NCBI GenBank assembly: GCA_951406725.2
Contig: OX597843.1
Coordinates: 18,724,001 to 18,788,000 of the forward strand
DNA from: Octopus vulgaris
Lineage: Eukaryota
Length of the DNA: 64,000 nt
Direction: 5' to 3'
The stretch's first letter is position 1, and each line of letters starts with the position of its first letter. Positions 5,391 to 62,045 of the stretch are shown here, piece after piece. The notes under the pieces are model-generated. The model saw only the letters and a program-made list of their open reading frames with translations, ran no database searches and was not told the DNA's origin. The translations under genes and the position numbers were made by a program.

Positions 5391-5397
5391 CACGACA

Positions 5398-13135: not shown

Positions 13136-13174
13136 ATATATTTATATATATATATAATTATATGTTCAGCAAAA

Positions 13175-16744: not shown

Positions 16745-19700
16745 ATAATGAAAGGACCAGGATTGTAAATGTACAATTGCGAAAGAGTGAACTACACTTC
16801 AGAAGAAGGGATTATATAAGGCGTTACAATTTTTCCACAAGCAATGAAAAAGCTGCACCGCGAAAACAGAGACATTCTTCTCTATCCATGGAATACACCT
16901 GCGGAGTGAATCGTGTAGACATTGTGCCATCTAGTCCCAATGAGTTATCCACTTCTAATCCCTCATGGAAAGTCCGGATGGCACTGTGAGATTCTACACG
17001 TGGCTAAACGCAGAACATCCGCTCGCAGACTACTCACGATGTAATTTAGGGTTGTGATTGCAGTACCTTGGGGACCATCAGGCCCAGTTGCTCGTAGAGC
17101 AGTACAGTGGACTTATGGACTACCTGCAGAGAGGAGTTGATGAGAATGTTGAGCCAAGAGCTGTCCTCGGAGTATGCATTAATATAATTAGGATGCAATG
17201 CCGATTGCATCAGAGTATGGTAAACAAGACTTAATTGTCACATATACATCCAACCCTAAGTGCCATGAAATAGAAAATAATATGCAGCGAAATGGGACAC
17301 CAGGAAACCGACCTGATTTGGTTGCAAGAGTGTACAAGTTGTATCTCACTGAACGTCTGAAGGATATAAAGGACAGACACGTATTAGATGTATCAATAGC
17401 TCATGCCCATGTCACCGAGTTTCAAAAGAGAAGGCTTCCACACTGCCATATGCTGGTAGACAAAGTGAATATCAGAGATGATTTAGTTAAGAAATTCATG
17501 ATACATGGCCTTTGTATGTAGAATGGGTATGGCCCCAAAATGTTTCCCAAGAACTACAGAAATGAGATACTACTAAATAATAATGGATATCCATAGAACA
17601 GGAGGCGCAATAATGGGATCGCAGCACAAGTTGAACTCCACTCTGTTGAAAACAGGTATGTCGTACCATACAATGCTTACCTATTAAAGCAATTCCGATC
17701 TCATATTAATAGAGAAGTTAGCTCCTCTGTAAAAATTGTCAAGTACATCTACAAATAAATCTACAAAGATCATAATAGCGATTCAATTGAAGTAAGGAAT
17801 GATACAATGGCAGAAAGCAAACAAATTCAGCAAAACCATGGCGAAATCAGAAGTTATTTTGCATGTCGATACGTTTCACCTCCTGAAGCCATGTGGAGAA
17901 TATCTCAGTACAAGCTGCATGACTCCTCTCACACTGTTTACAGACTACTAGTTCCATTTGAAGACCGGGAGAGACTGTGCTTTCACAGAGGTAACACTCA
18001 GTAACCTACTCAAGAACAGAGATCGATCGTGACAATACATTCAAACTGAATGAGCACGATGAAAATTAACGGAAATACTTGTGCCCTGACATTCCTTTAC
18101 GTTATGTATTTGATGTACGTACAAAATCATGAACACTCAGGAGAAGAAACAATAACATCGGCAGCAGATTGAACACAGTGAGTCCTAAGGACGTAGAAAC
18201 GTTTCATTTACGATTGCTATTTTGTATGTTCCAGGTACTAAGCGCTTTGAAGAAGTGAACACTGTAGGAGGTGAAATCTAAGCAAGATTTAAAGATGCGT
18301 ACATATGACTTGGTCTTCTCCAAAATTATGTGATGTTGGAGCATGCCATACTTAAAGGTGCTGCATACCGGATGGCATTTCAGCCGCGTATCACGTTCGT
18401 TGTCCTTTGCACCTATTCAAATCCTTCAAATGTCCTTCGACTGAGGAACACTCACAAGAATACCATAATAGGAGATTATGCTCAGCGAAGTTTGAATGCA
18501 TACTCTACACTCTGTAAATTCTATGCAAATTGAAAATGGCATTAGCTGCCTTAATATTGGCTTGTCTGAACCAGTTCGAGTGTAACGGGTAGGGCATAAA
18601 CATGACATGAACCACCCCGGCATTGCAACCGTTACCGATGAACAGAGAGTGATCGCTGATGCAGTCATTGAAGACAGTTGATAAGAAAAGGTGAGGTGAG
18701 GTACTGGAATGTTCCTTTTTCTATGCAGATGTTCCTGGAGGTTGGGACAAGGCTTATATATTTAATACACTGATCTCACATCTACGAAGGAGAAACTATC
18801 AAGTGGTGCGTGCAGAGGCATAGCTTCAACATTGATGTCTGGTGGAAGGACGGTGCACAGTTTGCTCAAATTGCCCGTTCCTCTGTTGGAAACTAGCTTT
18901 TGCAGTGTACCACCCATCTCTGACCAGAAATTATTTGAGAAATTTGTATTTGATCATTATAGATGAGGCTTCCATGATCCCTCGTTATGCTTTTCATGCT
19001 AATGACAAAGCTCTGAAAGATATCACTGGGAACAATGAAAGTTTCGGTTGAAAAGTTGTGCTTACTGGTAGAGACTTCAGGCAAGTTCTGCCAATATTGC
19101 CAAGAAGACCTCGTGACGCAGTAATTCAGATCTCCATTAAGAACTCTCCTCTCTGGTTACACTTCAGACAATATAGGTTGAGCCAAAATAGATCAACGAC
19201 AGATCGAAGAGAATTTGCAACATGGCCACTACACTTTGACAATGGCACGACAGCTCTTCTGCAAGATCCAAATGAGACAGTTGATGATGTAGAAGTGCTA
19301 CATGATTCATGCTTTAATGGGTCCCTGATAAATGAGGCTTTTTGGCAATGCCCCTCAAGAACAAAGAACATGTAGAGTGATCCTCTCACCAAAATTTCAG
19401 ACTGCTTAAAGATAAACGAAGGGGTTATGGATAAACTCCCAGGTGACCAGTGCTTTTATTACAGCATGGATAAGGTCTTCACAGATGACCTGCTGAAGCT
19501 GAGCGATATCCACTGGAATTTCTGATTTCAGGGACACCATCTGGAATGCCACCTCCTAGATTGCATTTGAAACCTGACACCATAATCATGCTCCTGAGGA
19601 ATATTTCAATTCAAAATAGTCTCTATAACGGAACAAGACTGGAAGTGGAGGCCCTCCATCAAATCTCGATTGAAGCCTCAATAATAAGTGGCACATTGAT

Positions 19701-19984
19701 CGGAAGACGTATTCTCATTCACAGGATACGGCTGGCACTGAGACACCTATTCCCGTTCGCTTGACAATTGCAATGACTATCAGTAAATCACGTGGGCAGA
19801 CATTTGATAAACTGGAGCTATTCTTGCCTGAAACTGCGTATTAATGGTCAGCTATATGTTGTTTCCCAAGATCTCACAAACATTATCTGATATTAAAGTT
19901 AAAGTTATCAACACTGACAAACAAGGGAAAAGAAGAGGGAGAAGTTACGCGAACAACACAATCTGTAACGAAGTATTGGATTGA
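16745..19984 (+). pseudogene. Helitron B RepHel pseudogene (Rep plus Pif1-like helicase)
   Basis: DAMPIASEYGKQDLIVTYTSNPKCHEI, RPDLVARVY, EFQKRRLPHCHML, CRYVSPPEAMWRI, LIIIDEASM, GRDFRQVLP, MPPPRLHLKPDTIIMLLRN..NGTRL. Frameshifted throughout. Confidence 0.92.
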
Positions 19985-26282: not shown

Positions 26283-28482
26283 ATATATGGGCTCTCAGAA
26301 CTGGAACCAGTTTTCGAAGCAAAGCGTGCAGCTCTGATGCAATACCAGAGTGATTCTTCTACAAAGTCACTCGAAAAACTCAGAAAGGCAAGAAATATAA
26401 CCCAACTGACAGCAAGATGCTGTGCAAATAGATATTGGCATAAAATCTGTCAGAGTATCCAGTCAGCTGATGACAGTGGCGATACCCGTGGGATGTATGG
26501 CGGTTTGAAGAAGGCCCTCGGTCCATCCGCAACCAAGTCAGCCCCTCTGAAATCAACTACTGGGGATCTCATCAAGGACCAAAGCAAGCAAATGGATACA
26601 TGGGTGGAGAACTACCAGGATCTCTACTCACGGAAGACCACGGTAGCTGAGGCTGCAATCGAGATTGTCAAGATCTTGCCAGTCATATGCGAACTTGACA
26701 GTCCGCCATATATAGCAGAGCTATAGACGCCCTAGAAAGGGTATTGACTTCTTAGCAAGTAACAAGTCTCCGGGAAAAGATGGCATCCCCTCAGAGATCA
26801 TCAAGGCCGGCAAAAACACTATTCTGCTTCGGCTACCTTCATGAGCTTCTGTGTCAGCGCTGGGAAGTGGGTACAGTCTCTCGGGATATGCGGGATGCTA
26901 ACATCATTACGCTTTACAAAAACAAAGGTGACCGTGGTTTATGTAACAATTACCGTGGAATATCTCATCTAAGCACTGTTGGAAAGTCCTTTGCTCGCGT
27001 TATCCTGTCCAGGCTACAACTGCTTGCTTCTCGAATTTATCCGAAATCGCAGTGTGGCTTTAGAAGAAGCAGATCAACTATTGACATGATATTCTCCATA
27101 CGCCAACTTCAGGAGAAGTCCAAAGAGCAGAAAATGCCATTATATATGGGCTTCATTGGTCTGACAGAAGCTTTTGACTTGGTAAATAGAAAAGGCCTCT
27201 TCATCCTGCTCTAAAAATCGGATGTCCACCAAAGCCGCTGAGGATCATCAAATCTTTCCATGATGATATGCAAGGCACCATACAATGGATCAATATCAGC
27301 CGCCTCCCAAATAAAAAACGGGGTAAAGCAAGGTTGTGTCCTTGCTCCTACATTATTTGGCATCTTCTTCTCGCTGCTGCTCTCACATGCCATTCAGGCA
27401 TCAGATGATGGAGTGTTTCTACAGAGTAGAAGTGACGGGAAACTGTTCAATCTCTCGCGCCTTCGTGGCAAGACCAAAATCAGAAACGTCCTGATGATGC
27501 CGCTCTGGTATCACACACAGAATCCCTACAAAGGCTCATCAACTGTTTTGAGCAAGCATGTAATGACTTTGGCTTAGTTATCAACCTCAAGAAGACCAAC
27601 ATCATGGGTCAGGCTACACCGGACATCCCAAACATACATATTGGAGACCACAGATTACAGGAGGTGGAGAAGTTTACCTATCTTGACTCTAGCGTCACCT
27701 ACAACTTACCCCTTGATGCTGAGCTCAATATACGCATTGGCAATGCGCTGTGATGGCCCAAATCTCGAAACGGGCATGGGACAACAATAAGCTGACCAAG
27801 AACACAAAAATGAAGATTTGCCAGGCAAGTGTACTTAGCACTCTACTGCATGGAAGTGAGACCTGGACGCCATACAAACGCCAAGAGCGTCGCCTAAATA
27901 TCTTTCACCTGCGCTGCCTCCAGAAAATCCTTCGTATCAAATGGCAGAATCATGTCCCCAACAAAGATGCCCTCAACCAAGTAGGAATACCAAGCATGTT
28001 TGCACTCCTCACACGTATGAGAGGGCTTGGACATGTTAGCCGTTTGAAGATGGCAGAATTCCCAAGGACATAACCTACTGAGAGCTTGCTAGGGGCACTA
28101 AGTCTGCGGGAAGACTATTCTTACGATACAAGGATGTTTACCAAAGGGACATGAAGGCCTACAACATCAATATTAGCAACTGGGAAGCAGTTGCCAGCAA
28201 CCGTGGAGATTGGCGACGTACCGTAAAAGAGGGAACACAAAGGAGTGATAAAGAGAGGAGAAATGGAAAGACAAGAAAAGACATCAAAAAGAAACTATGA
28301 CATTGCAACCAGCCAGGAAAAGTCTTCGCTACTTTAGCGGCACCTGCCAGAGGGAGTGTTTGTCCAGGATAGGACTACACAGCCACAGCAGGAGATGTAT
28401 TAGGATATGAAATGTAAAAGCCGGACTAGATTATTTTATGCGCAACTCCATTGTCTCTCGAGACAAAAAAGATGCCAACAAC
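26283..28482 (+). mobile_element. 5'-truncated RTE-clade LINE (RT pseudogene)
   Basis: KNKGDRGLCNNYRGISHLSTVGKSFARVIL, PKSQCGFRRSRSTIDMIF, GVKQGCVLAPTLF, damaged xDD motif (PDDAALV), STLLHGSETW, terminal C..SRIGLHSH..RC and a short (CAA)n tail. Frameshifts. Confidence 0.93.
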
Positions 28483-30680: not shown

Positions 30681-31120
30681 TACGACGGGTTTCCTTCAGT
30701 TACCCAATTAACCAACATAAACGGGTTTGTTCGGCTGGAGACCAAAGTACACGCATAAGGACTGAATACAGAAGCAAAATTCTCATCACACAGCTATGCC
30801 AACGCCTAAGCTTATGTACACACACACACCCACACCCACACACACACACAAACACACACACACACACGCAGGTACCCACACACACATACACACACTACAC
30901 ATACACATATGACGGAAATGGAAAATGGATTTTACGAGATTCGTTAATCATTACTGCCGGTTCAACCCGTCTTCAATCGGCCCCTCACGAATGAGATAAT
31001 GGTCGAGTGGCCGCGGTGCATCATTCTTTGCAGATGTTTCTCATCAGTTGACATTTGAAAAAGGACTCTGCTCAATAAACTCGGTTTCACTTGGTTCGAT
31101 TATAATGTATTTCGTTAGTT

Positions 31121-31480
<360 letters not shown>

Positions 31481-33228: not shown

Positions 33229-33569
33229 ACATACATATATCCACATATATATACCTTATCAAACTCTGATGTATAAACGCACACACTCAACTCCAGGCCA
33301 CACATATATTCCCACTTTCTTACACACAGGCAAACATAAATTGTAAGACAATATGAATTGTAGAAGAATGAGAGTAAATAAACAAGATAAGAGAGATATT
33401 TAGTTTGTGGAAATGACATTGGATGACATATCGTGATCTTATTATGAAGAAGATGACTAACATAAGAGAAAGTCTCCCGCCCCTAAGCCCTAGACCATCA
33501 CCTAACTACCCTTATCCGTCTTGTTGCTTCACAACAACAACAACAACAGCAGCAGCAGAATGCGTTGTA

Positions 33570-35420
33570 GCTTTTGGAAGCCCAAACTGAGCTAAAATTG
33601 ATAATTAAAGCTGACAGGCGACCTGCTGGTGAGCACCTGAGACGTTTCAATGCTCCAACCACCCACAAGGTTGCAGCAATAATAGTCGGCGAAGAAAATG
33701 GCAAGCGTGATATTGTCTTCCAGCACCGCGATAGCCGACTGTCCTTTGTTTCGGAAACCCATCGGTCATACGACTGCCTGCAGTACCCCCTACTGTTTCC
33801 CCTTTGGAGAGGATGGCTACAGCGTTCACCAATGCCATGTTGATCCAATCACGCGTGCTGAATTAACCAAGGCTGTTTCCTACAAGGAATTCTATGCCTT
33901 CCGTCTTATGGTCAGAGAAGAAAAGTTCGAAAAACTACTACGGTACAAGGAAGTCACAAATCAATTCTTGGTTGACATGTTTGCCAAGGTTGAAGGGGAA
34001 AGGTTTCTTTATAGTCGTCAAAATCAAGAAACATTGGATTCGACTTCAATAACGTCATCTACAACACGGCCCTCCTCGATTTGCAATCAGGACTGCAAGT
34101 TATGGGAGTAGTTGGCGTATCAGATTTCATTCTGCCGTCTCCGCGGGACATTCCAAATGCTTTAGCAGCTGAGTACATGCGAGAGTTGAGCTACAACACG
34201 CAGGAAACGGTGGTGCAGGTTGCTCAGGATGAGCCTAGACTTTTGGAAGAACAGAGAATTGAATACAACAGAATCCTCGCAAGTATTAATTCCAACGAAA
34301 GACAACTTTTTTTCTTGGATGCTCCCGGCAGAACCGGAAAAACTTGGGGAATCTTCTCACTGAGTGCAGCCTTATCATCTGGGATGAGGCAGCCATGTGT
34401 CATAAGGCAGCATTTGAGGCGCTCGAGCGGTCTCTTCAAGACCTGAGACGCAATATGAGAGTGATGGGCGGAGTAATTGTACTGCTTGCTGGCAACTTCC
34501 GACAAACTCTACCTGTCATTCCACGGGGGACAAGAGCTGACGAGGTAAATGCTTCCATAAAATCATCCTAGTTATGGCACCACAGCGAGAAACTTCACCT
34601 GACTACGAACATGAGAGTTCACGTGTTTGGCAACGAAAATGCGGCCACATTCTCGGTGCAGCTTCTCGATGTTAGTAATGGAACTGTAGCTGGCGATACT
34701 GATGGTTTCATCCATTTACCATTTGGTAACTTCGTGCCTAACGTAGATGATCTGATTTCTGCAGTTTTTCCTGACATTGCAAGCCAAAGCCTTCACACAA
34801 CTTGCCTACAAGGAATAGCAATTTTGGTGCCTCACAATAAAACAGTCGACGCTATCAATAATAAACTTTTTGATCTGCTTTCTGGAGAAAAACTCTCCTT
34901 CAAGTCCATTGAGACGCATGAAAACCCGGATGATATGACCATTTTCACAACGGAATTTCTTAATTCCCAAACGCCCACAGGACTTCCGCCTCACGAACTC
35001 CATCTCAATGATGGCGCCCCCATCATGCTGCTGCGGAATCTTGATGCTCCAATAATGTGTAAAGGCACGCGGATGATAATAAAAAAAATATATACTCCCG
35101 AGTTCTGCAGGCAACCATCTTGAATGGACCAGCCACTGGTCAAGATGTTCTAATAACCCCAATGTCCCTCACTCCCTCCGATACGATCTACAAGTTTAAG
35201 CGGCTTCAATTTCCTATCAAACTCTCCTTTGCATTGAAAATATATAAGGTACAGGGTCAATCATTGCAAATGGTTTGTTTAAATTTCACAGAGCAAGTAT
35301 TCTCACACGGTCAACTGTTCGTTGGATGCTCCCATGTTGGCAGCACACAAAGTCTAGACATTTCTGCATCAGAAGGGAAAACGATAAATGTTGCCTAGAA
35401 AGAAGCACTCCACTGAAACT
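33570..35420 (+). pseudogene. Helitron C RepHel pseudogene, Rep catalytic core deleted
   Basis: GEHLRRFNAPT..HRSYDCLQYPLLFP..GEDGY and QFLVDMFAKVEGERF, then a direct jump to helicase FFLDAPGRTGKT, IIWDEAAM, GNFRQTLPVIPRGTRADE, LPPHELHL..GAPIMLLRNL, RLQFPIKLSFA, FSHGQLFVGCS. Confidence 0.92.
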
Positions 35421-38970: not shown

Positions 38971-40019
38971 GTATGAAACACACACACACACACACACGCA
39001 CACACACACACACGCAGGTACCCCACACACACATACACACACTACACACACACGGAAATGGAAAATGGATATTATGAGATTCATTAATCATTACTGCCGT
39101 TTCAACCCGTCTTCAATCGGCCCCTCACGGATGTAATTGTAGAGTTTAAAATAACTGATGTTATTGAACCAGTATCTCAAAAGAGTGAGGATGAATATAT
39201 TTCTATACGTTCTTTTCTTGAAGTGAGTATAACTCTGCATAAATATATATTTCATAATATACCCACCTATAGACACAAATGCAAACATAGATATTCGCGT
39301 GCAATCGTACACTCATACACAAAATGTTAGACATTTATGCAGACACATAGAGACACAAACACTCATAGACACCTTCATACACACTCTAACATGAAATTAG
39401 TAGCAGAACATTAGTTAGAGATAGAAAGAGAAAAAGGAAGATGAGAAGACATCAGGTTCCTATAAAAAAATTCATAAATAAAATTTCAAAAAACTTAACC
39501 AACTTACAAGTAGATTAACCTTGGAAGATTTTGAATGCATCCTTGTGGGATGGTTGTGATCTTATTCCTACTGAGATATCTGAAAAATAAAACACAATTC
39601 AAAAGAAAGAGTATTAAAGAGTATTAAAAAGATTTCTTATAAAACATTAAATCTTGTATGTTTAGAATCATATTAATAAAAAGTGGACGATGAAGGAGAA
39701 AATCGCCGAGATAATGTTGATGATGATGATGATGAGTGTTGCGATGTTGATTGTAAATGTTGTAATAATGACGGTGAGAAGGAAGAGGGCGATAATGATG
39801 ATGATTATTATCGAAAACGATGACAAACGCTACTGATTAGTTGGTGATGACGACGTTGATTATTATGATGTTCATAACAAAGGTGATGATGATTCTGCAT
39901 GCTAGAAATAGCAGAGTAAATGGTGGAAGGAAATAGTTTTGATGACATGATAAATTATAACGATTAGTGAATACGAAAATATGATTAGTAGAAGGACTAT
40001 GGATATGATAGCACGGAAG

Positions 40020-40026
40020 ATGATAC

Positions 40027-40070
<44 letters not shown>

Positions 40071-40097
40071 GTGATAATGATGGTGATGATGATGATT

Positions 40098-40150
<53 letters not shown>

Positions 40151-40151
40151 A

Positions 40152-40198
<47 letters not shown>

Positions 40199-40812
40199 AG
40201 ATATGATGAAAGATTAGAAACTAATAAGAATAACGAAGGCGAAGGAAAATAAATCATAGAACGTATAGATATAGAGAAGAAGAAGAAGAAGAAGAAGAAG
40301 AAGAAGAAAAAGAAGAAGAAGAAGAAGAAGAAGAACAAGAACAACAACAACAACAACAACAAGAACAAGAAGAAAAAGAAGAACAAGAAGAAGAACAAGA
40401 ACAAGAAGAACAAGAAGAACAAGTAGAACAAGAAGAAGAAGAAGAAGAAGAAGAAGAAGAACAAGAAGAAGAAGAAGAAGAAGAAGAAGAAGAAGAACAA
40501 GAAGAAGAAGAACAAGAAGAACAAGAAGAAGAAGAAGAAGAAGAAGAACAAGAAGAAGAAGAAGAACAAGAAGAAGAAGAAGAAGAAGAAGAAGAAGAAG
40601 AAGAAGAAGAACAACAACAAGAACAAGAAGAAGAAGAACAAGAACAAGAAGAAGAAGAACAAGAAGAAGAAGAACAAGAAGAACAAGAAGAAGAAGAAGA
40701 AGAAGAAGAAGAAGAAGAAGAAGAAGAAGAACAAGAAGAAGAAGAAGAAGAAGAAGAAGAAGAAGAAGAAGAAGAAGAAGAAGAAGAAGAAGAAGAAGAA
40801 GAAGAAGAAGAA
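40020..40812. repeat. (GAT)n tract (~40020-40200) and ~540-bp (GAA/CAA)n tract (40275-40812)
   Basis: Seen directly. It explains the poly-M and poly-F ORFs. Confidence 0.95.
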
Positions 40813-41959
40813 GCGAAAATGATTCATGAAAGAGGAGAAAGCAGTTGAAATAATTAAAAGCAGAAGAACCAGAAAATGATGAACAAGATGAATGTAGAGA
40901 AAAATTGTGAAGAAGACGATAAATGCAGGAAAAGAAGATATATTAAGACAAGAAAAATAACGTGGAATATCAGAATGGGGAAACAAGTGGGAATAAAGGA
41001 ATATTAATACAAATACTGTAGTCACACATCAAGCAAACACAAACATATGTATGCATATATATATATATACAACTTATAAACAAGGACAAAAGATAAAAAA
41101 TTCAATACCATATATGCCGAAAATAGACTTAATCGTGTATAACCGTATAATTTATCACCATAATCGCGCGTCCCGATAGCAACACGGTAGAAATTTCCAA
41201 AACATTTGGTTAGAATCGGATCGGTCCCAATTTCTGAATTAATTCATTTAGAATTTTCTCCTCATCAGCGATAAATACGATCAGAAAATAAATGACCCAC
41301 ACACTTGTACCTTTAAAAGCATTATTTTAATATTCTGGCCATTGATAACATTTTTCCAAAAGTTTTATCCTATATTAGATATAAATTCAATACTATTCAC
41401 TTCCGGACTCTCTCAATCTATGAGAATTTTCAGTCCGATCAGACGTTGAAAATAACGCATCTGCTGTGCCACGCATGTTGCGAAATTTCGTCTTTACGCG
41501 GCTCTACAACCTATCTACCGAGTTCGTGTGGACCGTAGGATCGTTGGGGGGTCTACAAAATGAACAGGTAAGAACAAATATGCAAGGCTTCTTTATTCTT
41601 CAAGTTTAAAATTCGACATTGTTGGCATATTTTTGTTATATCTATATTCCACAACAAATAAATACAGAACAGGCACACACACACACACACAAAAACAAAC
41701 AGACAAACAAGAACAAACATGCTCGTACACACAGACAAGAACAAGCACGCACATACACACACACAAACACACACAAAGAAGAAGTACGTACACGCAGACA
41801 GAGGAACAAGCACGCACGTACAACCCATTACCTTTCTTCTCCAATTTCATGAGAGTTGACCACGTGCTTTTCAACTTTTCATGGAAACAGTTGAATTGAA
41901 ATGTTTTGATTTTGTCGAGTCATATCGAAGGAATGCCATATCGTTTATAAATTTTTTTT

Positions 41960-43760
41960 TAAATATATATATATTTTATGGATGTAGTGGAATCAAACGA
42001 GTAATCGCTAATTAAATTATGACAAGGGGTTTCGCCAATTCAGATGCTTGAAAAATAAGAATGAGTCTAGAGAGTGGAACAAGGGAGGTAACAAATGGCA
42101 AGGGAGACAACCAACTCCTCAGTATAACTTTTAAAATGGTCAAGTTTGTGTATTAAGGTGTTGCCTGGACTTTTGTATGAACAGGTTTTCCTTATTCAGC
42201 CATTCTTGTAAGGAGATTAGAAACTTTGCATTGGTATAATGGAAAGATATGGAAATTATGCGTTTTATTTCTTGCGCATCTGTGGATATGTTCACTCAGG
42301 GCCATCCACTTGTATTGATGAAAACTAATCTGTTCTTTATGTAGCGTGACTCTTCGTCTCAAAGTATGGCTCGTTTGGCCCACATAATAATGGGCACAAC
42401 CTGAGCAGGTTAGGACCTATATGAACTTTCGCTACAAACATTTGGACCCCCATTCTACCAGTATATAAGAGAAAACTGGAAAAGGTACCTAGACGATTGT
42501 TTTATCATCTGGAATGAAACCTATGAAAAACTCCTGGATGTCAAATCCACGCTGAACAATATAAACTCCAATATTCTATTTACAATGGAATATAGCAAGA
42601 AATATTTCCTATTTCTGGACATTTTGATTATAACAAAATCCAACAACCAAATTTCAACTGACATCTCCTACAAACCAACAGGCTCAAAACAGTATCTCCT
42701 TTTCAGTTCATGCCATCCTAAATACACCAAAAGGAATATCCCATCCAATCTAGCTAAAAGGATCTGTACAATTGTATCTGACACAACCACTCGGGAACGT
42801 CGCCTACAAGACCTCAAAATAACACTCATTAAACGACAATACCCACCCGCACTTATAGACCATGGAATTGAACGTGCCAAGAAATTGGACACAAACAAAT
42901 TTAGGACAACAAAACAGAACACCACACCCCACTTTAAATCACTCCCATACATATCAACCCACAACTCCGGAAACAATGAAGCATACAACACAATTGTACA
43001 AAATCTTCCTCTGCTCATTCAAGACACGAAAATAAACAACATCCTAACTACACATAAACTCCACATACGCAAAAGACAATACAAATCACTCAAGAGATTC
43101 CTAACAAATGCAAAACTATACTCAATACGTACGATACCAACAGTTCAAAAATGCAGACGACCTAATTGTGGTACATGCCCATACCTAACTGAAGTCTCGG
43201 AATTCACATTCCAGCAAGGAGAAATATTCTCAATTAAGACCAACTTCATATGTGCTTCCCAGAAACTTATCTATGTCCTAATCTGCTCAGATTGTGGCCA
43301 CAATTATGTTGCCCAACGAGCCTTACTTTGAGACGAAGAGTCACGCTACATAAAGAACAGAATCGTTTTCCTCAATACAGGCAGATAGCCCTGGGCGAAC
43401 ATATCGACAGATGCGCAAGAAATAGAAAGCCAAATTTCCATATCTTTCTATTATACCAGTGCAAAGATTCAATCTCCTTACAAGAACGGCTAAGCAAGAA
43501 AACCTGTTCATAGAAAAGTACAGATAACTCCTTACCTACAAACTTGACCACTTCAAAAGTTATACTGAGGTGTTAGTTGTCTCTCTTGCCATTTGTTACC
43601 TCCCTTTGTCCATTCTATAAATTCATTCTTATTTTTCAAGTATCCAGAATGGCAAGACCCATTTGTCACAAGAATTGATTACTTCACAATGTTCCTTGAA
43701 AAGCTAATTTAAATAGCGAAAACGGTTGAATATCACTACATCCATACAATATGTATATAT
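41960..43760 (+). mobile_element. Penelope-like retroelement (RT C-terminus plus GIY-YIG) preceded by an inverted copy of its own 3' end
   Basis: WKRYLDDCFIIW (~42478), FLDILI..TDISYKPTGSKQYLLFSSCHP, C..CGTCP, LIYVLICSDCGHNYVAQ. 41960-42420 minus encodes GQTSHTLRRRVTLHKEQI, matching 43270-43760 plus. Confidence 0.9.
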
Positions 43761-50229: not shown

Positions 50230-50453
50230 ATGTATGTATATATGTATATGTATACATATATATATATGTATATATATATACATATATATATGTATATATA
50301 TATACATATATGAATGTATGTATATGTATATATATATATATATTGTGCTTAAAGCTATAACATCAACAACATAAGCGTTCAGCTGAAAACATAATCAATA
50401 AGGAATTTAAAACATTGAATGTGGAAAATACGCAGAAAGTGTCAAGTACTTAC

Positions 50454-50656
50454 AAACCCTCAACAGTCGTCGGAATCGGTTGTGGTATTGATGATAATCC
50501 GAGACCTCGACAGTTTACAACTGTGGCAGGTATATTGCAAGAACACTTATTGCATATATCTTCAACAGCATGAACCTCCAAAAACAATATCGTATACAGC
50601 ATCAACACGAAAGTTTGCTTATATGATACTATATAGTGAAACATGTTTTCAGGCAT
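50454..50656 (-). CDS. First coding exon of a secreted or membrane leucine-rich-repeat protein (signal peptide plus LRRNT cap)
   Basis: MPENMFHYIVSYKQTFVLMLYTILFLEVHAVEDICNKCSCNIPATVVNCRGLGLSSIPQPIPTTVEGL. Acceptor ttttctattttcttctcttacAG at 50665-50666; phase-2 donor TT|GTAAGT at 50453, typical of LRR genes. No downstream exon recognised. Confidence 0.82.
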
Positions 50657-50890
50657 AGATTAATCTGTAAGAGAAGAAAATAGAAAATATCTGAGACTTC
50701 AATGTTATTATCCTCACGCTGCAGATTCGTTTAAAGAATTAAAGTTCACCCCTGTTCATTGTGACGAATATATCTTTATTTTCCTTATTTAATACTTAAA
50801 GTTAGAAAACTAAATTTCGATAAATTAGTGTGAAGAATTTTATTATAGATTGATGGGAGATAATCTGTATCTATAAATGCCAGGATGTGT

Positions 50891-50922
<32 letters not shown>

Positions 50923-52214
50923 ACGTGAATGTAATTTATACACGTCTACAAATTAGCACACATGTCGCTCTAATTTTAGGAGGACATTCGTCACGATCTA
51001 TACTAGGTTTTATCAACTTATTTTTCCCGAGGCACCTGCGGATAGCGGTAAAAATCTATTTTCAACCATAACTTTTACCAATTTTGAAGTTTGCTAGCAT
51101 GGGTTAAGTCCCTTCTTGCCTTAGCCAAGTGAAAGTGTGTATATGTGTGTGAGGGAGTGAGAGAAGTTGTGTGTTGCTCTATATGTGTGTGTGTGTGTGT
51201 TGAGGGGGAGAGAGTGTTTGACAGCGTCTAACCAAAAAAAGTAAAGGAAAAGTATGTGTAAGGAAGAGAGGGGGAGAGTTTGACAGTGTCTAAAAAGAAA
51301 AAAGGTAAAATGTTTTATAGTCTTCAAATTTAGGATGTTCTTGAAAGACACTATATTTTATAATCAGATTATGTATACTTTCTCACACAACATTTGAAAT
51401 ATATTTATTTAAAATTATTTATATATTTAAAATCGTTCATGTTCCCCCCCTCTCTCACACATACACACACACACTACTTTGGGCACGAAAGAGTTTTGTT
51501 TTTAATTTACGCCGAGGAAAAATGTGATTTGTTGAGAATCTATTTATTTAACGTACAAACAAAGAGGTAGGTAACAATTTGTCAGTGAAGTACACAATAT
51601 AGATGGATAAAATTTCCGAGGCTTCTACCACACCCCGCCCCGTTTTTCGGACCATAAAATGGGTTTTGTAGCGCGCAAAAAATCCGATTTTTCTCTTAGT
51701 GAAAATCGTGCGTGTGTTAATCTACAAATTTACCAACTTTTTTTCTATTCATTTCTGTTTATGAAATTCTCTGTACGTAATTTCCTTTCTCAGTGATCAA
51801 GGCTAATGATGACTTTGTGCTATAGTTATTTCACTTCCTATGTTATTTAAAGCATTTTTGATATGTGGAATTTCAACATTACAAACGAGTTCAGAACATG
51901 CTACTTAAGTTCGCTGAAACTTATCTCCTGCCATGAAATTTTGAATGTTAGATAATTAGTGATGGTTCATTCAATTAGAAAATAAAACCTATTATTCTGT
52001 TTTATTGCATTTTGATTTATTTTTCATCTGTTTGACAAAAACAAGTTACTGTTGCTTGAAAACAACCGGGTAACGTTGTCTGTGTTTGAAAACAGTTTTG
52101 TTCTCATTGCTGATTTTTCGTTCAGCAGAACCGCAACTTCAGCTTCATTTCTGCCTTCATCTAATCACATTTCCCCATCTCCAGTTACATTTTCTCCCTC
52201 TCCCTATTTCCCAT

Positions 52215-52450
52215 ATGCCATCTAAGAAAAGAATCTGTCTCGGGCGCCGGACGACTGCTGCGTCGGCACAGGGGGCTAGAAGGACCAATGAGACTTCTGA
52301 CGAAACTAAATTGCGATTGGCTCAGACCTCTTTGCGTGCTTCGAGCAGGAAAATCATTGAAAGTGACGACGAAAGGGCTGTGCTACTACAAAGAAGGCGG
52401 TCGTAAAACCGTTCAGTGCGTTTTCCAGAACGAGCTTAGCTCGATCTGCT
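52215..52450 (+). pseudogene. Helitron RepHel N-terminus (basic leader plus first divergent 23-aa repeats)
   Basis: MPSKKRICLGRRTTAASAQGARRTNETSDETKLRLAQTSLRASSRKIIESDDERAVLLQRRRS*. ETxxE..RL motifs lie 23 aa apart. Stop at 52404 and a frameshift before the array. Confidence 0.8.
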
Positions 52451-55400
52451 CGCAATTCAAAAAACGCTGTTGCTACTGCGAAAGGAAGAGCCTCCGAGAC
52501 TGCTGAACAACGGGCACTCCAAAACGGAACGCTGCTGCTACTGCCAAAGCAAGGCCTCCAAGACTGCTGCTCCGTACACAAAACGCTGCCAAAGCCAATG
52601 CGAGAGCCTCCGAGACTGCTGAACAACGGGCAATCCGCAATACACAGAACGCTGCTGCTACTGCCAATGAGACAGCCTCCGAGACTGCTGAACAACGGGC
52701 ACTCCGTAATACACAGAACGCTGCTGCTACTGCCAATGCTAGAGCCTCCGAGACTGCTGAACAATGGGCACTCCGCAATACACAGAACGCTGCTGCTACT
52801 GCCAATGCGAGAGCCTCCGAGACTGCTGAACAACGGGCACTCCGCAATACACAGAACGCTGCTGCTACTGCCAAAGCAAGAGCCTCCGAGACTGCTGAAC
52901 AATGGGAACTCCGCAATACACAGAACAATGCTGCTACTGCCAATGCGAGAGCCTCCGAGACTGCTGAACAACGGGCACTCCGCAATACACAGAACGCTGC
53001 TGCTACTGCCAATGCGAGAGCCTCCGAGACTGCTGAACAACGGGCACTCCGCAATACACAGAACGCTGCTGCTACTGCCAATGCGAGAGCCTCCGAGACT
53101 GCTAAACAACGGACACTCCTCGATACACAGAACGCTGCTGCTACTGCCAATGCGAGAGCCTCCGAGACTGCTGAACAACGGACACTCCTCGATACACAGA
53201 ACGCGGCTGCTACTGCCAATGCGAGAGCCTCCGAGACTGCTGAACAACGGGCACTCCGCAATACAGAGAACGCTGCTGCTACTGCCAATGCGAGAGCCTC
53301 CGAGACTGCTGAACAATGGGCACTCTGCAATACACAGAACGCTGCTGCTACTGCCAATGCGAGAGCCTCCGAGACTGCTGAACAACGGGCACTCCGCAAT
53401 ACACAGAACGCTGCTGCTACTGCCAATGCGAGAGCCTCCGAGACTGCTGAACAACGGGCACTCCGCGATACACAGAACGCGGCTGCTACTGCCAATGCGA
53501 GAGCCTCCGAGACTGTTGAACAACGGGCACTCCGCAATACACAGAACGCGGCTGCTACTGCCAATGCGAGAGCCTCCGAGACTGCTGAACAACGGGCACT
53601 CCTCGATACACAGAACGCGGCTGCTACTGCCAATGCGAGAGCCTCCGAGACTGCTGAACAACGGGCACTCCGCAATACACAGAACGCGGCTGCTACTGCC
53701 AATGCGAGAGCCTCCGAGACTGCTGAACAACGGGCACTCCGCAATACACAGAACGCTGCTGCTACTGCCAATGCGAGAGCCTCCGAGACTGCTGAACAAC
53801 GGGCACTCCGCAATACACAGAACGCGGCTGCTACTGCCAATGCGAGAGCCTCCGAGACTGCTGAACAACGGGCACTCCGCAATACACAGAACGCGGCTGC
53901 TACTGCCAATGCGAGAGCCTCCGAGACTGCTGAACAACGGGCACTCCGCAATACACAGAACGCGGCTGCTACTGCCAATGCGAGAGCCTCCGAGACTGCT
54001 GAACAACGGGCACTCCGCAATACACAGAACGCTGCTGCTACTGCCAATGCGAGAGCCTCCGAGACTGCTGAACAACGGGCACTCCGCAATACACAGAACG
54101 CGGCTGCTACTGCCAATGCGAGAGCCTCCGAGACTGCTGAACAACGGGCACTCCGCAATACACAGAACGCGGCTGCTACTGCCAATGCGAGAGCCTCCGA
54201 GACTGCTGAACAACGGGCACTCCGCAATACACAGAACGCTGCTGCTACTGCCAATGCGAGAGCCTCCGAGACTGCTGAACAACGGGCACTCCGCAATACA
54301 CAGAACGCTGCTGCTACTGCCAATGCGAGAGCCTCCGAGACTGCTGAACAACGGGCACTCCGCAATACACAGAACGCTGCTGCTACTGCCAATGCGAGAG
54401 CCTCCGAGACTGCTGAACAACGGGCACTCCGCAATACACAGAACGCTGCTGCTACTGCCAATGCGAGAGCCTCCGAGACTGCTGAACAACGGGCACTCCG
54501 CAATACACAGAACGCTGCTGCTACTGCCAATGCGAGAGCCTCCGAGACTGCTGAACAACGGGCACTCCGCAATACACAGAACGCTGCTGCTACTGCCAAT
54601 GCGAGAGCCTCCGAGACTGCTGAACAACGGCACTCCGCAATACACAGAACGCTGCTGCTACTGCCAATGCGAGAGCCTCCGAGACTGCTGAACAACGGTA
54701 ACTCCGCAATACACAGAACGCTGCTGCTACTGCCAATGCGAGAGCCTCCGAGACTGCTGAACAACGGGCACTCCGCAATACACAGAACGCTGCTGCTACT
54801 GCCAATGCGAGAGCCTCCGAGACTGCTGAACAACGGTAACTCCGCAATACACAGAACGCTGCTGCTACTGCCAATGCGAGAGCCTCCGAGACTGCTGAAC
54901 AACGGTAACTCCGCAATACACAGAACGCTGCTGCTACTGCCAATGCGAGAGCCTCCGAGACTGCTGAACAACGGGCACTCCGCAATACACAGAACGCTGC
55001 TGCTACTGCCAATGCGAGAGCCTCCGAGACTGCTGAACAACGGTAACTCCGCAATACACAGAACGCTGCTGCTACTGCCAATGCGAGAGCCTCCGAGACT
55101 GCTGAACAACGGGCACTCCGCAATACACAGAACGCTGCTGCTACTGCCAATGCGAGAGCCTCCGGAGACTGCTGAACAACGGTAACTCCGCAATACACAG
55201 AACGCTGCTGCTACTGCCAATGCGAGAGCCTCCGAGACTGCTGAACAACGGGCACTCCGCAATACACAGAACGCTGCTGCTACTGCCAATGCGAGAGCCT
55301 CCGAGACTGCTGAACAACGGTAACTCCGCAATACACAGAACGCTGCTGCTACTGCCAATGCGAGAGCCTCCGAGACTGCTGAACAACGGGCACTCCGCAA

Positions 55401-58400
55401 TACACAGAACGCTGCTGCTACTGCCAATGCGAGAGCCTCCGAGACTGCTGAACAACGGGCACTCCGCAATACACAGAACGCTGCTGCTACTGCCAATGCA
55501 AGAGCCTCCGAGACTGCTGAACAACGGGCACTCCGCAATACACAGAACACTGCTGCTACTGCCAATGCGAGAGCCTCCGAGACTGCTGAACAACGGGCAC
55601 TCCGCAATACACAGAACGCTGCTGCTACTGCCAATGCGAGAGCCTCCGAGACTGCTGAACAACGGGCACTCCGCAATACACAGAACGCTGCTGCTACTGC
55701 CAATGCGAGAGCCTCCGAGACTGCTGAACAACGGGCACTCCGCAATACACAGAACGCTGCTGCTACTGCCAATGCAGAGCCTCCGAGACTGCTGAACAAC
55801 GGGCACTCCGCAATACACAGAACGCTGCTGCTACTGCCAATGCGAGAGCCTCCGAGACTGCTGAACAACGGGCACTCCGCAATACACAGAACGCTGCTGC
55901 TACTGCCAATGCGAGAGCCTCCGAGACTGCTGAACAACGGGCACTCCGCAATACACAGAACGCTGCTGCTACTGCCAATGCGAGAGCCTCCGAGACTGCT
56001 GAACAACGGACTCCGCAATACACAGAACGCTGCTGCTACTGCCAATGCGAGAGCCTCCGAGACTGCTGAACAACGGGCACTCCGCAATACACAGAACGCT
56101 GCTGCTACTGCCAATGCGAGAGCCTCCGAGACTGCTGAACAACGGGCACTCCGCAATACACAGAACGCTGCTGCTACTGCCAATGCGAGAGCCTCCGAGA
56201 CTGCTGAACAACGGGCACCGCAATACACAGAACGCTGCTGCTACTGCCAAGCGAGAGCCTCCGAGACTGCTGAACAACGGGCACTCCGCAATACACAGAA
56301 CGCTGCTGCTACTGCCAATGCGAGAGCCTCCGAGACTGCTGAACAACGGGCACTCCGCAATACACAGAACGCTGCTGCTACTGCCAATGCGAGAGCCTCC
56401 GAGACTGCTGAACAACGGTAACTCCGCAATACACAGAACGCTGCTGCTACTGCCAATGCGAGAGCCTCCGAGACTGCTGAACAACGGGCACTCCGCAATA
56501 CACAGAACGCTGCTGCTACTGCCAATGCGAGAGCCTCCGAGACTGCTGAACAACGGTAACTCCGCAATACACAGAACGCTGCTGCTACTGCCAATGCGAG
56601 AGCCTCCGAGACTGCTGAACAACGGGCACTCCGCAATACACAGAACGCGGCTGCTACTGCCAATGCGAGAGCCTCCGAGACTGCTGAACAACGGGCACTC
56701 CGCAATACACAGAACGCTGCTGCTACTGCCAATGCGAGAGCCTCCGAGACTGCTGAACAACGGGCACTCCGCAATACACAGAACGCTGCTGCTACTGCCA
56801 ATGCGAGAGCCTCCGAGACTGCTGAACAACGGGCACTCCGCAATACACAGAACGCTGCTGCTACTGCCAATGCGAGAGCCTCCGAGACTGCTGAACAACG
56901 GGCACTCCGCAATACACAGAACGCTGCTGCTACTGCCAATGCGAGAGCCTCCGAGACTGCTGAACAACGGGCACTCCGCAATACACAGAACGCTGCTGCT
57001 ACTGCCAATGCGAGAGCCTCCGAGACTGCTGAACAACGGGCACTCCGCAATACACAGAACGCTGCTGCTACTGCCAATGCGAGAGCCTCCGAGACTGCTG
57101 AACAACGGGCACTCCGCAATACACAGAACGCTGCTGCTACTGCCAATGCGAGAGCCTCCGAGACTGCTGAACAACGGGCACTCCGCAATACACAGAACGC
57201 TGCTGCTACTGCCAATGCGAGAGCCTCCGAGACTGCTGAACAACGGGCACTCCGCAATACACAGAACGCTGCTGCTACTGCCAATGCGAGAGCCTCCGAG
57301 ACTGCTGAACAACGGGCACTCCGCAATACACAGAACGCTGCTGCTACTGCCAATGCGAGAGCCTCCGAGACTGCTGAACAACGGGCACTCCGCAATACAC
57401 AGAACGCTGCTGCTACTGCCAATGCGAGAGCCTCCGAGACTGCTGAACAACGGGCACTCCGCAATACACAGAACGCTGCTGCTACTGCCAATGCGAGAGC
57501 CTCCGAGACTGCTGAACAACGGGCACTCCGCAATACACAGAACGCTGCTGCTACTGCCAATGCGAGAGCCTCCGAGACTGCTGAACAACGGGCACTCCGC
57601 AATACACAGAACGCTGCTGCTACTGCCAATGCGAGAGCCTCCGAGACTGCTGAACAACGGGCACTCCGCAATACACAAAACGCTGCTGCTACTGCCAATG
57701 CGAGAGCCTCCGAGACTGCTGAACAACGGGCACTCCGCAATACACAGAACGCTGCTGCTACTGCCAATGCGAGAGCCTCCGAGACTGCTGAACAACGGGC
57801 ACTCCGCAATACACAGAACGCTGCTGCTACTGCCAATGCGAGAGCCTCCGAGACTGCTGAACAACGGGCACTCCGCAATACACAGAACGCTGCTGCTACT
57901 GCCAATGCGAGAGCCTCCGAGACTGCTGAACAACGGGCACTCCGCAATACACAGAACGCTGCTGCTACTGCCAATGAAAGAGCCTCCGAGACTGCTGAAC
58001 AACGGGCACTCCGCAATACACAGAACGCTGCTGCTACTGCCAAAGCGAGAGCCTCCGAGACTGCTGAACAACGGGCACTCCGCAATACACAGAACGCTGC
58101 TGCTACTGCCAAAGCAAGAGCCTCCGAGACTGCTGAACAACGGGCACTCCGCAATACACAGAACGCTACTGCTACTGCCAATGCGAGACTCTCCGAGACT
58201 GCTGAACAACGGGCACTCCGCAATACACAGAACGCGGCTGCTACTGCCAATGCGAGAGCCTCCGAGACTGCTGAACAACGGGCACTCCGCAATACACAGA
58301 ACGCTGCTGCTACTGCCAATGCGAGAACCTCCGAGACTGCTGAACAACGGGCACTCCGCAATACACAAAACGCTGCTGCTACTGCCAATGCAAGATCCTC

Positions 58401-60501
58401 CGAGACTGCTGAACAACGGGCACTCCGCAATACACAGAACGCTGCTGCTACTGCCAAAGCAAGAGCCTCCGAGACTGCTGAATAACGGGCACTCCACAAT
58501 ACACAGAACGCTGCTGCTACTGCGAAAGCAAGATCCTCCGAGACTGCTGAACAACGAGCACTCCGCAATACACAGAACGCTGCTGCTACTGCCAATGCGA
58601 GAGCCTCCGAGACTGCTGAACCACGGGCACTCCGCAATACACAGAACACTGCTGCTACTGCCAATGCGAGAGCCTCCGAGACTGCTGAACAACGGGCACT
58701 CCGCAATACACAGAACGCTGCTGCTACTGCCAATGCGAGAGCCTCCGAGACTGCTGAACAACGGGCACTCCGCAATACACAAAACGCTGCTGCTACTGCC
58801 AAAGCAAGAGCCTCCGAGACTGCTGAACAACGGGCACTCCGCAATACACAAAACGCTGCTGCTACTGCCAATGCGAGAGCCTCCGAGACTGCTGAACAAC
58901 GGGCACTCCGCAATACACAGAACGCTACTGCTACTGCCAATGCGAGAGCCTCCGAGACTGCTGAACAACGGGCACTCCGCAATACACAGAACGCTACTGC
59001 TACTGCCAATGCGAGAGCCTCCGAGACTGCTGAACAACGGGCACTCCGCAATACACAGAACGCTACTGCTACTGCCAATGCAAGATCCTCCGAGACTGCT
59101 GAACAACGGGCACTCCGCAATACACAGAACGCTGCTGCTACTACCAATGCGAGAGCCTCCGAGACTGCTGAACAACGGGCACTCCGCAATACACAGAACG
59201 CTGCTGCTACTGCCAATGCGAGAGCCTCCGAGACTGCTGAACAACGGGCACTCCGCAATACACAGAACGCTGCCGCTACTGCCAATGCGAGAGCCTCCGA
59301 GACTGCTGAACAACGGGCACTCCGCAATACACAGAACGCTGCCGCTACTGCCAATGCGAGAGCCTCCGAGACTGCTGAACAACGGGCACTCCGCAATACA
59401 CAGAACGCTACTGCTACTGCCAATGCGAGAGCCTCCGAGACTGCTGAACAACGGGCACTCCGCAATACACAGAACGCTACTGCTACTGCCAATGCGAGAG
59501 CCTCCGAGACTGCTGAACAACGGGCACTCCGCAATACACAGAACGCTGCTGCTACTGCCAATGCGAGAGCCTCCGAGACTGCTGAACAACGGGCACTCCT
59601 CGATACACAGAACGCGGCTGCTACTGCCAATGCGAGAGCCTCCGAGACTGCTGAACAACGGGCACTCCGCAATACACAGAACGCGGCTGCTACTGCCAAT
59701 GCGAGAGCCTCCGAGACTGCTGAACCACGGGCACTCCGCAATACACAGAACGCTGCTGCTAATGCCAATGCGAGGTTCTCCGAGACTGCTGAACAACGGG
59801 TACTCCGCAATACACAGAACGCTGCTGCTACTGCCAATGCGAGATCCTCCGAGACTGCTGAACAACGGGCACTCCGCAATACACAGAACTCTGCTGCTAC
59901 TGCCAAAGCAAGAGTCTCCGAGACTGCTGAACAACGGGCACTCCGCAATACACAGAACGCTGCTGCTACTGCCAATGCGAGATCCTCCGAGACTGCTGAA
60001 CAACGGGCACTCCGCAATACACAAAACGCTGCTGCTACTGCCAATGCGAGAGCCTCCGAGACTGCTGAACAACGGGCACTCCGCAATACACAGAACGCTG
60101 CTGCTACTGCCAATGCGAGAGCCTCCGAGACTGCTGAACAACGGGCACTCCACAATACACAAAACGCTTCTGCTACTGCCAATGCGAGAGCCTCCGAGAC
60201 TGCTGAACAACGGGCACTCCTCAATACACAGAACGCTGCTGCTAGTGCCAAAGCAAGAGCCTCCTAGACTGCTGAACAACGGGCACTCCTCGATACACAG
60301 AACGCTGCTGCTACTGCCAATGCGAGAGCCTCCGAGACTGCTGAACAATGGGCACTCCGCAATACACAGAACGCGGCTGCTACTGCCAATGCGAGATCCT
60401 CCGAGACTGCTGAACAACGGGCATTCCGCAATACACAGAACGCTGCCGCTACTGCCAATGCGAGAGTCTCCGAGACTGCCGAACACCGGGCACTCCGCAA
60501 T
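52451..60501 (+). repeat. ~116-copy 69-bp tandem array encoding 23-aa STPR-like repeats (ARASETAEQRALRNTQNAAATAN)
   Basis: Unit GCGAGAGCCTCCGAGACTGCTGAACAACGGGCACTCCGCAATACACAGAACGCTGCTGCTACTGCCAAT, 58% GC with 5 CpG per unit. Copy number estimated as length/69. Confidence 0.95.
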
Positions 60502-60502
60502 T

Positions 60503-61090
60503 AAAAAAACTTTCAGCATTGGCAAAAATTCAGAGGAAGCTGAAGTTCTTAGACAGTGCCGTCTCATTGTATGGAATGAATGCACAATGGCCAATAAGGG
60601 TGCCCTTGAAGCACTGGACCGGTCACTGAAAGATATAAGGAATTCTACAGCTTTTATGCTTTCAGGAGATTTCCGGCAAACCCTTCTTGTCATCCCTAAA
60701 GGGTGCAGGGCTGATGAATTGCGAGCATGCCTTAAGTCATTCACGTTGTGACCCCAGGTTAAGACGTTAAGCCTAAGCACAAACATGCGTGTGCACTTGC
60801 TTGGTGATAGCACGTCTGCGGCATTTGCTGAAAACATTTTAACCCTTGGGGAAGGCAAGGTCCCTAGGAATGATAGAGGTGACATATCCATCTCTGAACT
60901 GTGCAACACCGTGGACATCCCTTCCGATCTTTTGGAAACAGTGGTCCTCAATTTGGAAAGTAATTATGCAGACATCAATTGGCTCAGTAAAAGAACCATC
61001 CTGGCCCCTAAAAAGGTAACTTTCAGTGCTATCAACGACCAGCTCCTAAGTCGAATTCCGGGTGAAGAGGGCATCTACAAATCGATTGTT
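60503..61090 (+). pseudogene. Helitron Pif1-like helicase internal fragment
   Basis: AEVLRQCRLIVWNECTMANKGALEALDRSLKDIR..SGDFRQTLLVIPKGCRADE, NMRVHL..FAENILTLGEG, WLSKRTILAPK. Walker A and the C-terminus are missing. Confidence 0.9.
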
Positions 61091-61879
61091 CTCGGTTAAG
61101 CCCTATTTGGGGCGAAAAATCAATAAACTGATAAACCGATTCCTTATAGGATTTCCCACTGAAATTGGCTACACCCCATTTTCAACTATAACTTATGCCA
61201 ATTTTGACATATTTTTTTCAAAATTGATGCCAACATTACCTAGGACTCATGGGATCTTTGAATGCTTTAAGTTCTCAAAAAAAAAATACAGTCGATGAGT
61301 GGAAATAATCAATAAACCAATTCCTTATAGGATCTCCTAATTAATTTGCCTGCAACCCATTTTCAACGAAACGTTCACCAATTTCAACGGATTTCGCTCA
61401 AATTTGATGTCGGTGCAACTTATTTTGGTTTGAAATAAAGCGCTCGATCACTTAATAATCCTAACGTAATCCCGGGCAACGCCGGGCTATACTGCTAGTA
61501 CCAATTACCCCTGAACATCAAAAACACTGACCTACATACACAAACACACATACATACAGAGATAAACACAACTCTACACATTCACACGCAGTAACCATAC
61601 TTAGTGGATCTTCTATAAAATTAATGAACCGTAAATTTTGTGTACTGTAAAAATGTGTTGCCCCTAAACCCAGTTGGGCTGCTAAACCCGATGGGTCCCC
61701 ACAAGCAACTGTATTGTAACGAATGATTTCTTTTTTATGCATCTCGGTTTTAGAAGCGTTCATACAAATTCTTCATCAAATATGCTTTGATGATTTCATT
61801 TTACTAAATTTTTTATCCAAAACGAGAGCAAAGAATGAAGATAGATTTCCATGAAAATAATGTTCCTTCACATTCCTTC

Positions 61880-61881
61880 AT

Positions 61882-61935
<54 letters not shown>

Positions 61936-62045
61936 CACCACCACCACCATCACCACCACCAGCACCACCACTGCTGCTGTTGCTGCTACTACTACTACTA
62001 CTACTAATACTACTGTTGCTGCTGCTACTGCTGCTATTGTTATTA
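61880..62045. repeat. Compound (CTA)n/(CCA)n/(CTG)n microsatellite
   Basis: Seen directly. Confidence 0.92.

Follow-up and report, generated by a model that had tools for sequence, protein, structure and literature searches.

The 64,000-nucleotide stretch of Octopus vulgaris DNA analysed here (the window) contains, at positions 50864-61498, a relic of a Helitron1 (HLE1) transposon that is a real element and a dead copy. Its interior is occupied by 116 tandem units of 69 bp, each corresponding to one STPR module of the transposase. We conclude that this array probably multiplied as a non-coding satellite, by unequal recombination or slippage, after the gene that held the module had broken. The array behaves as a satellite does: it is long and arranged head to tail (8.0 kb, 116 units), it shows concerted evolution and it lacks coding constraint. 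The parts of the element are as follows, a slash marking the edge of the element in its terminal motifs.

50864..52214, plus strand: 5′ terminus (A/TC) and 5′ non-coding region, read from the sequence; 35% GC, with (TG)n tracts.
52215..52495, plus strand: decayed RepHel leader, with the MPSKKR start and three divergent 23-codon STPR-like units.
52496..60500, plus strand: the array proper, 116 tandem 69-bp units with one STPR module ETAEQRALRNTQNAAATANARAS apiece; 57% GC.
60485..60511, plus strand: array/helicase junction, with TGHSAIK in the helicase frame against TAHSAFK in relatives.
60501..61088, plus strand: Pif1-type helicase remnant, from the Pfam PIF1 match (PF05970, E 2.9e-15) and alignment to relatives.
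61089..61498, plus strand: 3′ non-coding region, with a 56-bp direct repeat (61131 and 61312), the hairpin at 61471-61486 and the CTAG/T end.

Tandem Repeats Finder reports a single array at 52594-60501, with a period of 69, 114.7 copies and 97% matches. Division at the unit anchor yields 116 units, the first starting at 52496, 109 of them exactly 69 bp long, in agreement with the roughly 116 near-identical units of exactly 23 amino acids that were described in the original prediction. The majority unit reads ETAEQRALRNTQNAAATANARAS and 46 units are identical to it, while the 109 full units fall into 40 distinct haplotypes. Unit 1 is rearranged, the last unit is partial and five central units (within units 31-54) carry indels of 1-3 bp.

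Among the three frames scanned (the STPR frame, the +1 frame and one minus frame; the +2 frame has stops and was dropped), only the ETAEQ frame matches the Pfam family STPRs (PF21107), with E 7.6e-79 and 260.6 bits for 29 units, 107.2 bits for 10 units and, for two units, 23.3 bits, which is below the cut-off of 27. The +1 frame gave a TmcA_N match only, with no passing stretches, which we took as repeat noise. The STPR identity that was proposed at the outset is therefore upheld by the profile search, and silkworm FMBP-1 is the sole match of four units in PDB (E 5.7e-4). The top match in the Atlas was an STPR cluster (0.77), a lead only. The unit (ETAEQRALR...) has the 23-residue period with E1, T/S2 and R9 and keeps Q5 and R6 too; at the C-terminal DNA-contact positions of FMBP-1 (L10, M13, Y16, R20 and L21) it carries N, N, A, A and R.

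The origin of the unit is best seen by comparison with the related Helitron protein P0002, in which the same leader is followed by three units of the same subtype, a Cys-rich region, Rep and helicase. The array unit keeps the register of the three leader units of the relic, and it matches the three coding units of P0002 at the position that they occupy. Because P0002 has this order, we regard the unit as the element's own coding repeat and not an inserted satellite; both its STPR identity and its Helitron-coding origin are supported by these sequence comparisons. The same NAAATAxxRA subtype is also found, a few copies at a time, in octopus and cuttlefish proteins. The unit is a cephalopod Helitron subtype of the STPR, with a predicted role in DNA binding.

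None of these proteins approaches 116 units. There are 0-7 STPR units in 30 RepHel proteins longer than 1,300 amino acids, relatives have 3-5 that belong to this subtype, and the longest 23-periodic run among 196 proteins is 11 units (P0123), by a simple motif count that misses degenerate units. Searches for array-like proteins returned four proteins from 8,000 scored candidates with a six-unit query and 73 with a four-unit query in a full HMMER scan, none of them with more than 11 units per run. An exact 21-base motif of the unit had no match in metagenome contigs, as expected for an animal repeat. Neighbouring STPR units in Helitron proteins are often 60-90% identical, and therefore the domain was already prone to duplication. 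The statement in the original prediction that Helitrons bear STPRs in a few divergent copies needs to be softened, given this identity and runs of up to 11. In one Octopus gene model, P0139, the Helitron leader and roughly three STPR units of this subtype are joined to a BTB-domain protein, which could reflect either a faulty gene model or exonisation of the DNA-binding arm.

The array is not under coding constraint. In the 109 full units (the counts exclude the seven of deviating length), nine of 41 distinct variants are silent against 11.6 expected (binomial p 0.60), and among the recurrent ones the figures are four of 18 against 5.2 (p 0.80). The ratio pN/pS is 1.29, and stops occur in 10 of the 109 units, with one stop variant recurring in eight. 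With no silent excess, this ratio and these stops, coding selection on the array was rejected. It had been argued that several recurrent variants are synonymous in this frame only. The four variants cited do exist, but silent changes are no more frequent than chance would have it, and all four are equally silent in one minus-strand frame. The stop variant mostly alternates with normal units in units 32-41 and 57-59 (54681-55371 and 56401-56607), which hints at a two-unit (138-bp) higher-order duplication.

The gene itself is dead. The leader (MPSKKR...ETSDETKLRL) starts at the ATG at 52215 and is 75% identical to residues 53-104 of P0002 (52 residues) and 71% identical to residues 102-136, as befits the RepHel start that was originally recognized. 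Its STPR-like units lie at 52290-52358, at 52359-52427 (with a stop at 52404) and at 52428-52495 (one base short), and they match Pfam STPRs at E 0.0022, under the cut-off. A search for homologues with the leader alone gave none at E<=0.1 among 64 candidates, a weak negative, as P0002 itself also escaped that search. The leader reading frame is interrupted by the stop at 52404-52406 and by two frameshifts ahead of unit 2, and unit 1 and units 2-30 each stand in a frame different from that of the leader ATG. The array frame had been thought to continue the leader; these breaks contradict that, although the frame does lack a Met as was stated, and no in-frame ATG precedes the first clean run of the array.

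Compared with full-length P0027, the relic lacks residues 110-1127 or thereabouts and the final 167 residues. Rep has indeed been lost, as proposed: no match to Rep sequence was found inside the element, and the relatives P0006 and P0027 do carry it. In place of the intact open reading frame with Rep (HUH/Y2) and helicase that an autonomous Helitron has, we find stops, frameshifts and two large deletions.

The switch from array to mid-helicase is abrupt, as first reported, and falls at about 60500. The remnant, a middle part of about 196 codons, runs from the Walker B region onward, with its D read as N, one stop and a 6-codon deletion; Walker A, which lies upstream, is missing. Its best four matches are 74-83% identical, and three of these are named Octopus bimaculoides. 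The original prediction overlooked the deletion of about 168 C-terminal helicase codons after 61088 and the stop at 60749-60751, which reads TGG in 94-100% of the depth across four public sequencing runs (X1, X3, X8 and X9, one per organism, with contigs aligned on 60403-61870). The junction is spanned by one listed X1 contig (60456-60622). The motif TGHSAIK (TAHSAFK in relatives) sits 11 codons before homology resumes. This similarity between unit and helicase is a possible microhomology join for the Rep deletion, and we roughly estimate the chance of such a coincidence at about 1%.

A Helitron begins with TC following an A and ends with a hairpin and then CTRR, and it inserts before a T with no target duplication. 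The A/TC start of the relic is at 50864 (an alternative at 50870 fits too), the hairpin at 61471-61486 is followed by CTAG/T at 61495-61498, and no target duplication is visible in the flanks. The 3′ end is a sharp family boundary. In all four runs contigs depart at 61499 (28-39 per row among the rows listed) into unrelated sequence (agreement 0.44-0.48), and their consensus begins with T at 61499. The termini named in the original prediction can therefore be read in the sequence, and the 3′ boundary is backed by four of four runs. The relic thus has the HLE1 5′ A/TC, the 3′ hairpin with CTAG/T and a Pif1-type helicase, the last as a broken middle part only. Rfam had no matches across 50300-62000.

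These observations would fit a history in four steps. An HLE1 copy would have inserted at an A/T site. About 1,000 codons would then have been deleted, possibly by a microhomology join of a unit with the helicase HSAFK motif. The remaining 3-5 near-identical units, freed from selection, would have been a ready seed for growth and homogenisation of the array. Finally, in some related organisms there would now be thousands of unit copies, either in much longer arrays here and at the few duplicates of this locus or elsewhere.

The pattern of variation along the array bears on this growth. Divergent edges and a uniform centre are expected from unequal exchange or slippage with homogenisation. Units at the edges differ from the majority unit by 2.1 bases and those in the middle by 0.83 (p 2e-5), falling to 0.06 in units 61-78, of which 17 of 18 are identical. 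Variants found in three or more units are clustered, with a mean spacing of 30.3 against 39.0 (2,000 permutations, p 0.001). The mean difference between units is flat at distances below 45 units and rises only beyond 50, and therefore the gradient is one of edge against centre and not a smooth one. Furthermore, we infer that the expansion or homogenisation is younger than the insertion and the deletion, because singleton changes amount to 23 in 7,521 bases of the array (0.31%), against at least 15 differences from the family in 588 bp of helicase remnant (2.6% or more) and differences at 11 of 391 letters in the X1 contig over the 3′ end and flank.

The public runs indicate that the unit is abundant elsewhere. 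The fraction of 5′-stretch words present in any of the runs does not exceed 0.30, and we therefore treat them as relatives and not as the window's own locus. The summed depths of the unit bin, which are not copy numbers, are 613,642, 173,795, 74,083 and 2,302 in the four runs. In the same order they exceed the median helicase bin by factors of 96, 32, 132 and 6.4, and the depth of the flank contig by factors of 2,398, 469, 2,413 and 68. If the contigs at depths of about 50, 58, 7.5 and 8 are single copies, the rough unit numbers would be 12,000, 3,000, 10,000 and 300. This is a strong hint that the unit is a genome-scale satellite that varies between lineages. The first of the two explanations originally offered, a satellite derived from a transposase coding repeat, is thus favoured by the missing coding constraint and by a unit depth far above that of the helicase in three of the four runs.

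The deletion derivative, on the other hand, seems to be local. Its 3′ end is bridged to the same flank in three of the four runs, and the junction is covered in these three, with junction against flank depths of 258 and 256 (X1), 72 and 31 (X8), and 42 and 34 (X9). In X3, of which about 80% was read, there is no cover at the junction or at the first flank bases, a hole that carries no evidential weight. With junction depth near flank depth, the derivative is therefore shared and limited to this locus with a small number of duplicates. Elsewhere in the family, copies continue upstream into normal helicase, as loose ends at 60509 and 60518 show. The 3′ flank (61499-61870) is multi-copy, with a contig depth about 4-6 times that of single divergent copies in all four runs, which suggests that the locus lies within a duplicated segment.

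Several points weigh against our conclusion. Silent changes account for the two commonest variants in the array (15 and 11 units), and there is a clean in-frame stretch of 29 consecutive units. Assembly polishing could have created part of the central uniformity and so exaggerated the youth of the array. The depth excess comes from a single 49-bp bin bordering the aligned stretch, bins inside the helicase differ up to 6-fold in depth, and the low X9 ratio could reflect a dropped contig or a diverged unit. Relatives sharing so few of the 5′ words, moreover, are not the window's own locus. The microhomology is a post hoc match at the protein level, given 14 exact 3-residue matches between the unit frames and 870 residues of P0002, and a join there requires an extra deletion of 11 codons.

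The array could instead have grown in a mobile, non-autonomous progenitor that was spread in trans by rolling-circle transposition, as with the satellite-bearing DINE-1 or oyster Helentron elements, which would make this locus one of many array-carrying insertions. We consider this unlikely. Both termini are intact, and 3′ ends are very abundant, with a depth 20-34 times that of the helicase in X1, X8 and X9. The unit depth is about 4-fold above that of the deepest 3′-end bin in three of the four runs, which many dispersed arrays could also produce. However, the near equality of junction and flank depth in X1 indicates that this derivative has not spread, and the 64-kb window holds no second copy.

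It is quite improbable that the 8-kb length is mostly an assembly artefact of a short array. In its favour are the near-complete identity of units 61-78 and the five small indels in units 31-54, which resemble uncorrected long-read errors. Against this, the full units comprise 40 haplotypes, the shared variants are regionally clustered (p 0.001, as above), and in none of the runs is the unit less than 68 times as deep as the flank contig.

The second explanation originally offered was a relic of a functional, hyper-expanded array: a transposase, or a separate protein, that wound around long DNA by means of dozens to a hundred STPR helices, much as TALE arrays do. The majority unit is an intact STPR (E1, T2, Q5, R6, R9), 29 consecutive units are open in frame and the number of STPRs is labile in Helitron proteins. 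Yet the silent excess that selection would leave is absent, stops are spreading in the array, the leader is broken and has no usable ATG for the array frame, and neither the 3-5 units of the relatives nor the maximum of 11 among 196 proteins comes near such a size. We hold this reading to be very improbable for the present array. By the same analogy with TALE proteins, other members of the family might express dozens to hundreds of in-frame modules and wrap hundreds of base pairs, at perhaps 4 bp per module if FMBP-1 is a guide, but this too is very unlikely. If it were true, and such a giant arm were expressed, the megabase-scale, lineage-variable 69-bp repeat would act at once as a satellite and as a store of DNA-binding modules, and the relic described here would be a dead sample of that store.

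That an independent satellite inserted into the Helitron and resembles an STPR by accident is hardly credible: the array does stand in Rep's place, its 3′ junction is abrupt and its GC content (57%) exceeds that of the leader (51%) and of the helicase (45%), but the unit matches an STPR in one of three scanned frames only and is in register with the leader units, and the native coding units of P0002 effectively refute the idea, which the original prediction had named as an outcome that would count against it.

The rest of the window is rich in Helitrons. Five other decayed RepHel remnants, of other families and with 26-60% identity to P0027, lie at 5170-5394 on the minus strand and at 7467-8075, 12155-13140, 17165-19922 and 33562-35413 on the plus strand. 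No obvious host gene was seen by eye among the 25 stop-to-stop frames of at least 130 amino acids. Judged by eye from their motifs, the frame at 26283-27214 (plus strand) resembles a LINE reverse transcriptase fragment and that at 42414-43331 (plus strand) a Penelope-type RT/GIY-YIG fragment. Very long simple repeats, at 40019-40813 and 31120-31475, include (GAT)x64, (AGA)x180 and about 290 bp of TAA type.

If the array did grow as a satellite after the death of its gene, it is valuable as a legible case of satellite birth, in which the sequence still shows the parent gene, a three-copy ancestral state, a deletion junction and the loss of coding constraint. It would also suggest a general route, whereby the repeat domains of transposase proteins provide ready tandem seeds, kept short by selection in a live element and able to run away after its death. 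Furthermore, if the 6- to 132-fold range of depth ratios among the four organisms is real, the unit would be a fast-evolving cephalopod satellite with a known ancestor, the amplification of which could be timed. A new functional system it probably is not.

How does the array compare with known systems? The HLE1 RepHel transposons (P0002, P0027, P0056 and P0117) share its termini, leader, N-terminal STPR modules and Pif1 helicase. They differ in having 0-7 units in the 30 RepHel proteins (at most 11 in all 196) where there are 116 here, and the relic has lost Rep together with the two ends of the helicase and has a non-coding array. In the HELIANO survey, STPRs are nearly confined to HLE1, and 55,718 HLE1 were counted for Octopus sinensis (PMC11417382). 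This contrasts with the STPR-like runs, up to 11 units in P0123, that we observed in the Helentron-type proteins P0121, P0123 and P0160 (DUF6570, some with OTU or endonuclease).

With the STPR domain of silkworm FMBP-1 (PF21107; PDB 5d23; PMC4856987) the unit shares the strict 23-residue period and E1, T2, Q5, R6 and R9. Contact with the major groove of AT-rich DNA is a further characteristic of STPR repeats. In that source, STPR domains have 3-7 repeats each, and the FMBP-1 residues that contact DNA (L10, M13, S14, Y16, A17, R20 and L21) are N, N, A, A, T, A and R here.

Satellites from transposon reading frames have precedents. The Chenopodium satellite CficCl-61-40 derives from the CACTA tnp2 transposase domain (PMC7320549), and others come from L1 ORF2, gag and CR1 (PMC9659126). 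Like CficCl-61-40, the octopus array has a monomer taken from transposase coding sequence and began within a deletion derivative. Its monomer is not a domain fragment of about 40 bp, however, but one whole protein repeat module that was already tandem and codon-phased, and it lies in a Helitron. Long arrays between intact Helitron ends with no working open reading frame are known as well: central repeats of Helitrons and Helentrons gave rise to Drosophila DINE-TR1 and oyster Cg170 (reviews PMC12628747 and PMC6947457), and satellites occur in Paramecium Helitrons (PMC13085455). As far as these accounts go, those arrays are built from central or non-coding repeats or captured satellites, whereas here the transposase's own domain repeat has been used. 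We found no report of an STPR-derived satellite in the open-licence literature (Repbase and Dfam lay outside the search), and none of the papers on octopus satellites concerns the STPR unit, judged by title or the start of the abstract. Satellites that arise from transposon coding sequence are already known, and one seeded by a codon-phased STPR module is a new instance of this known process.

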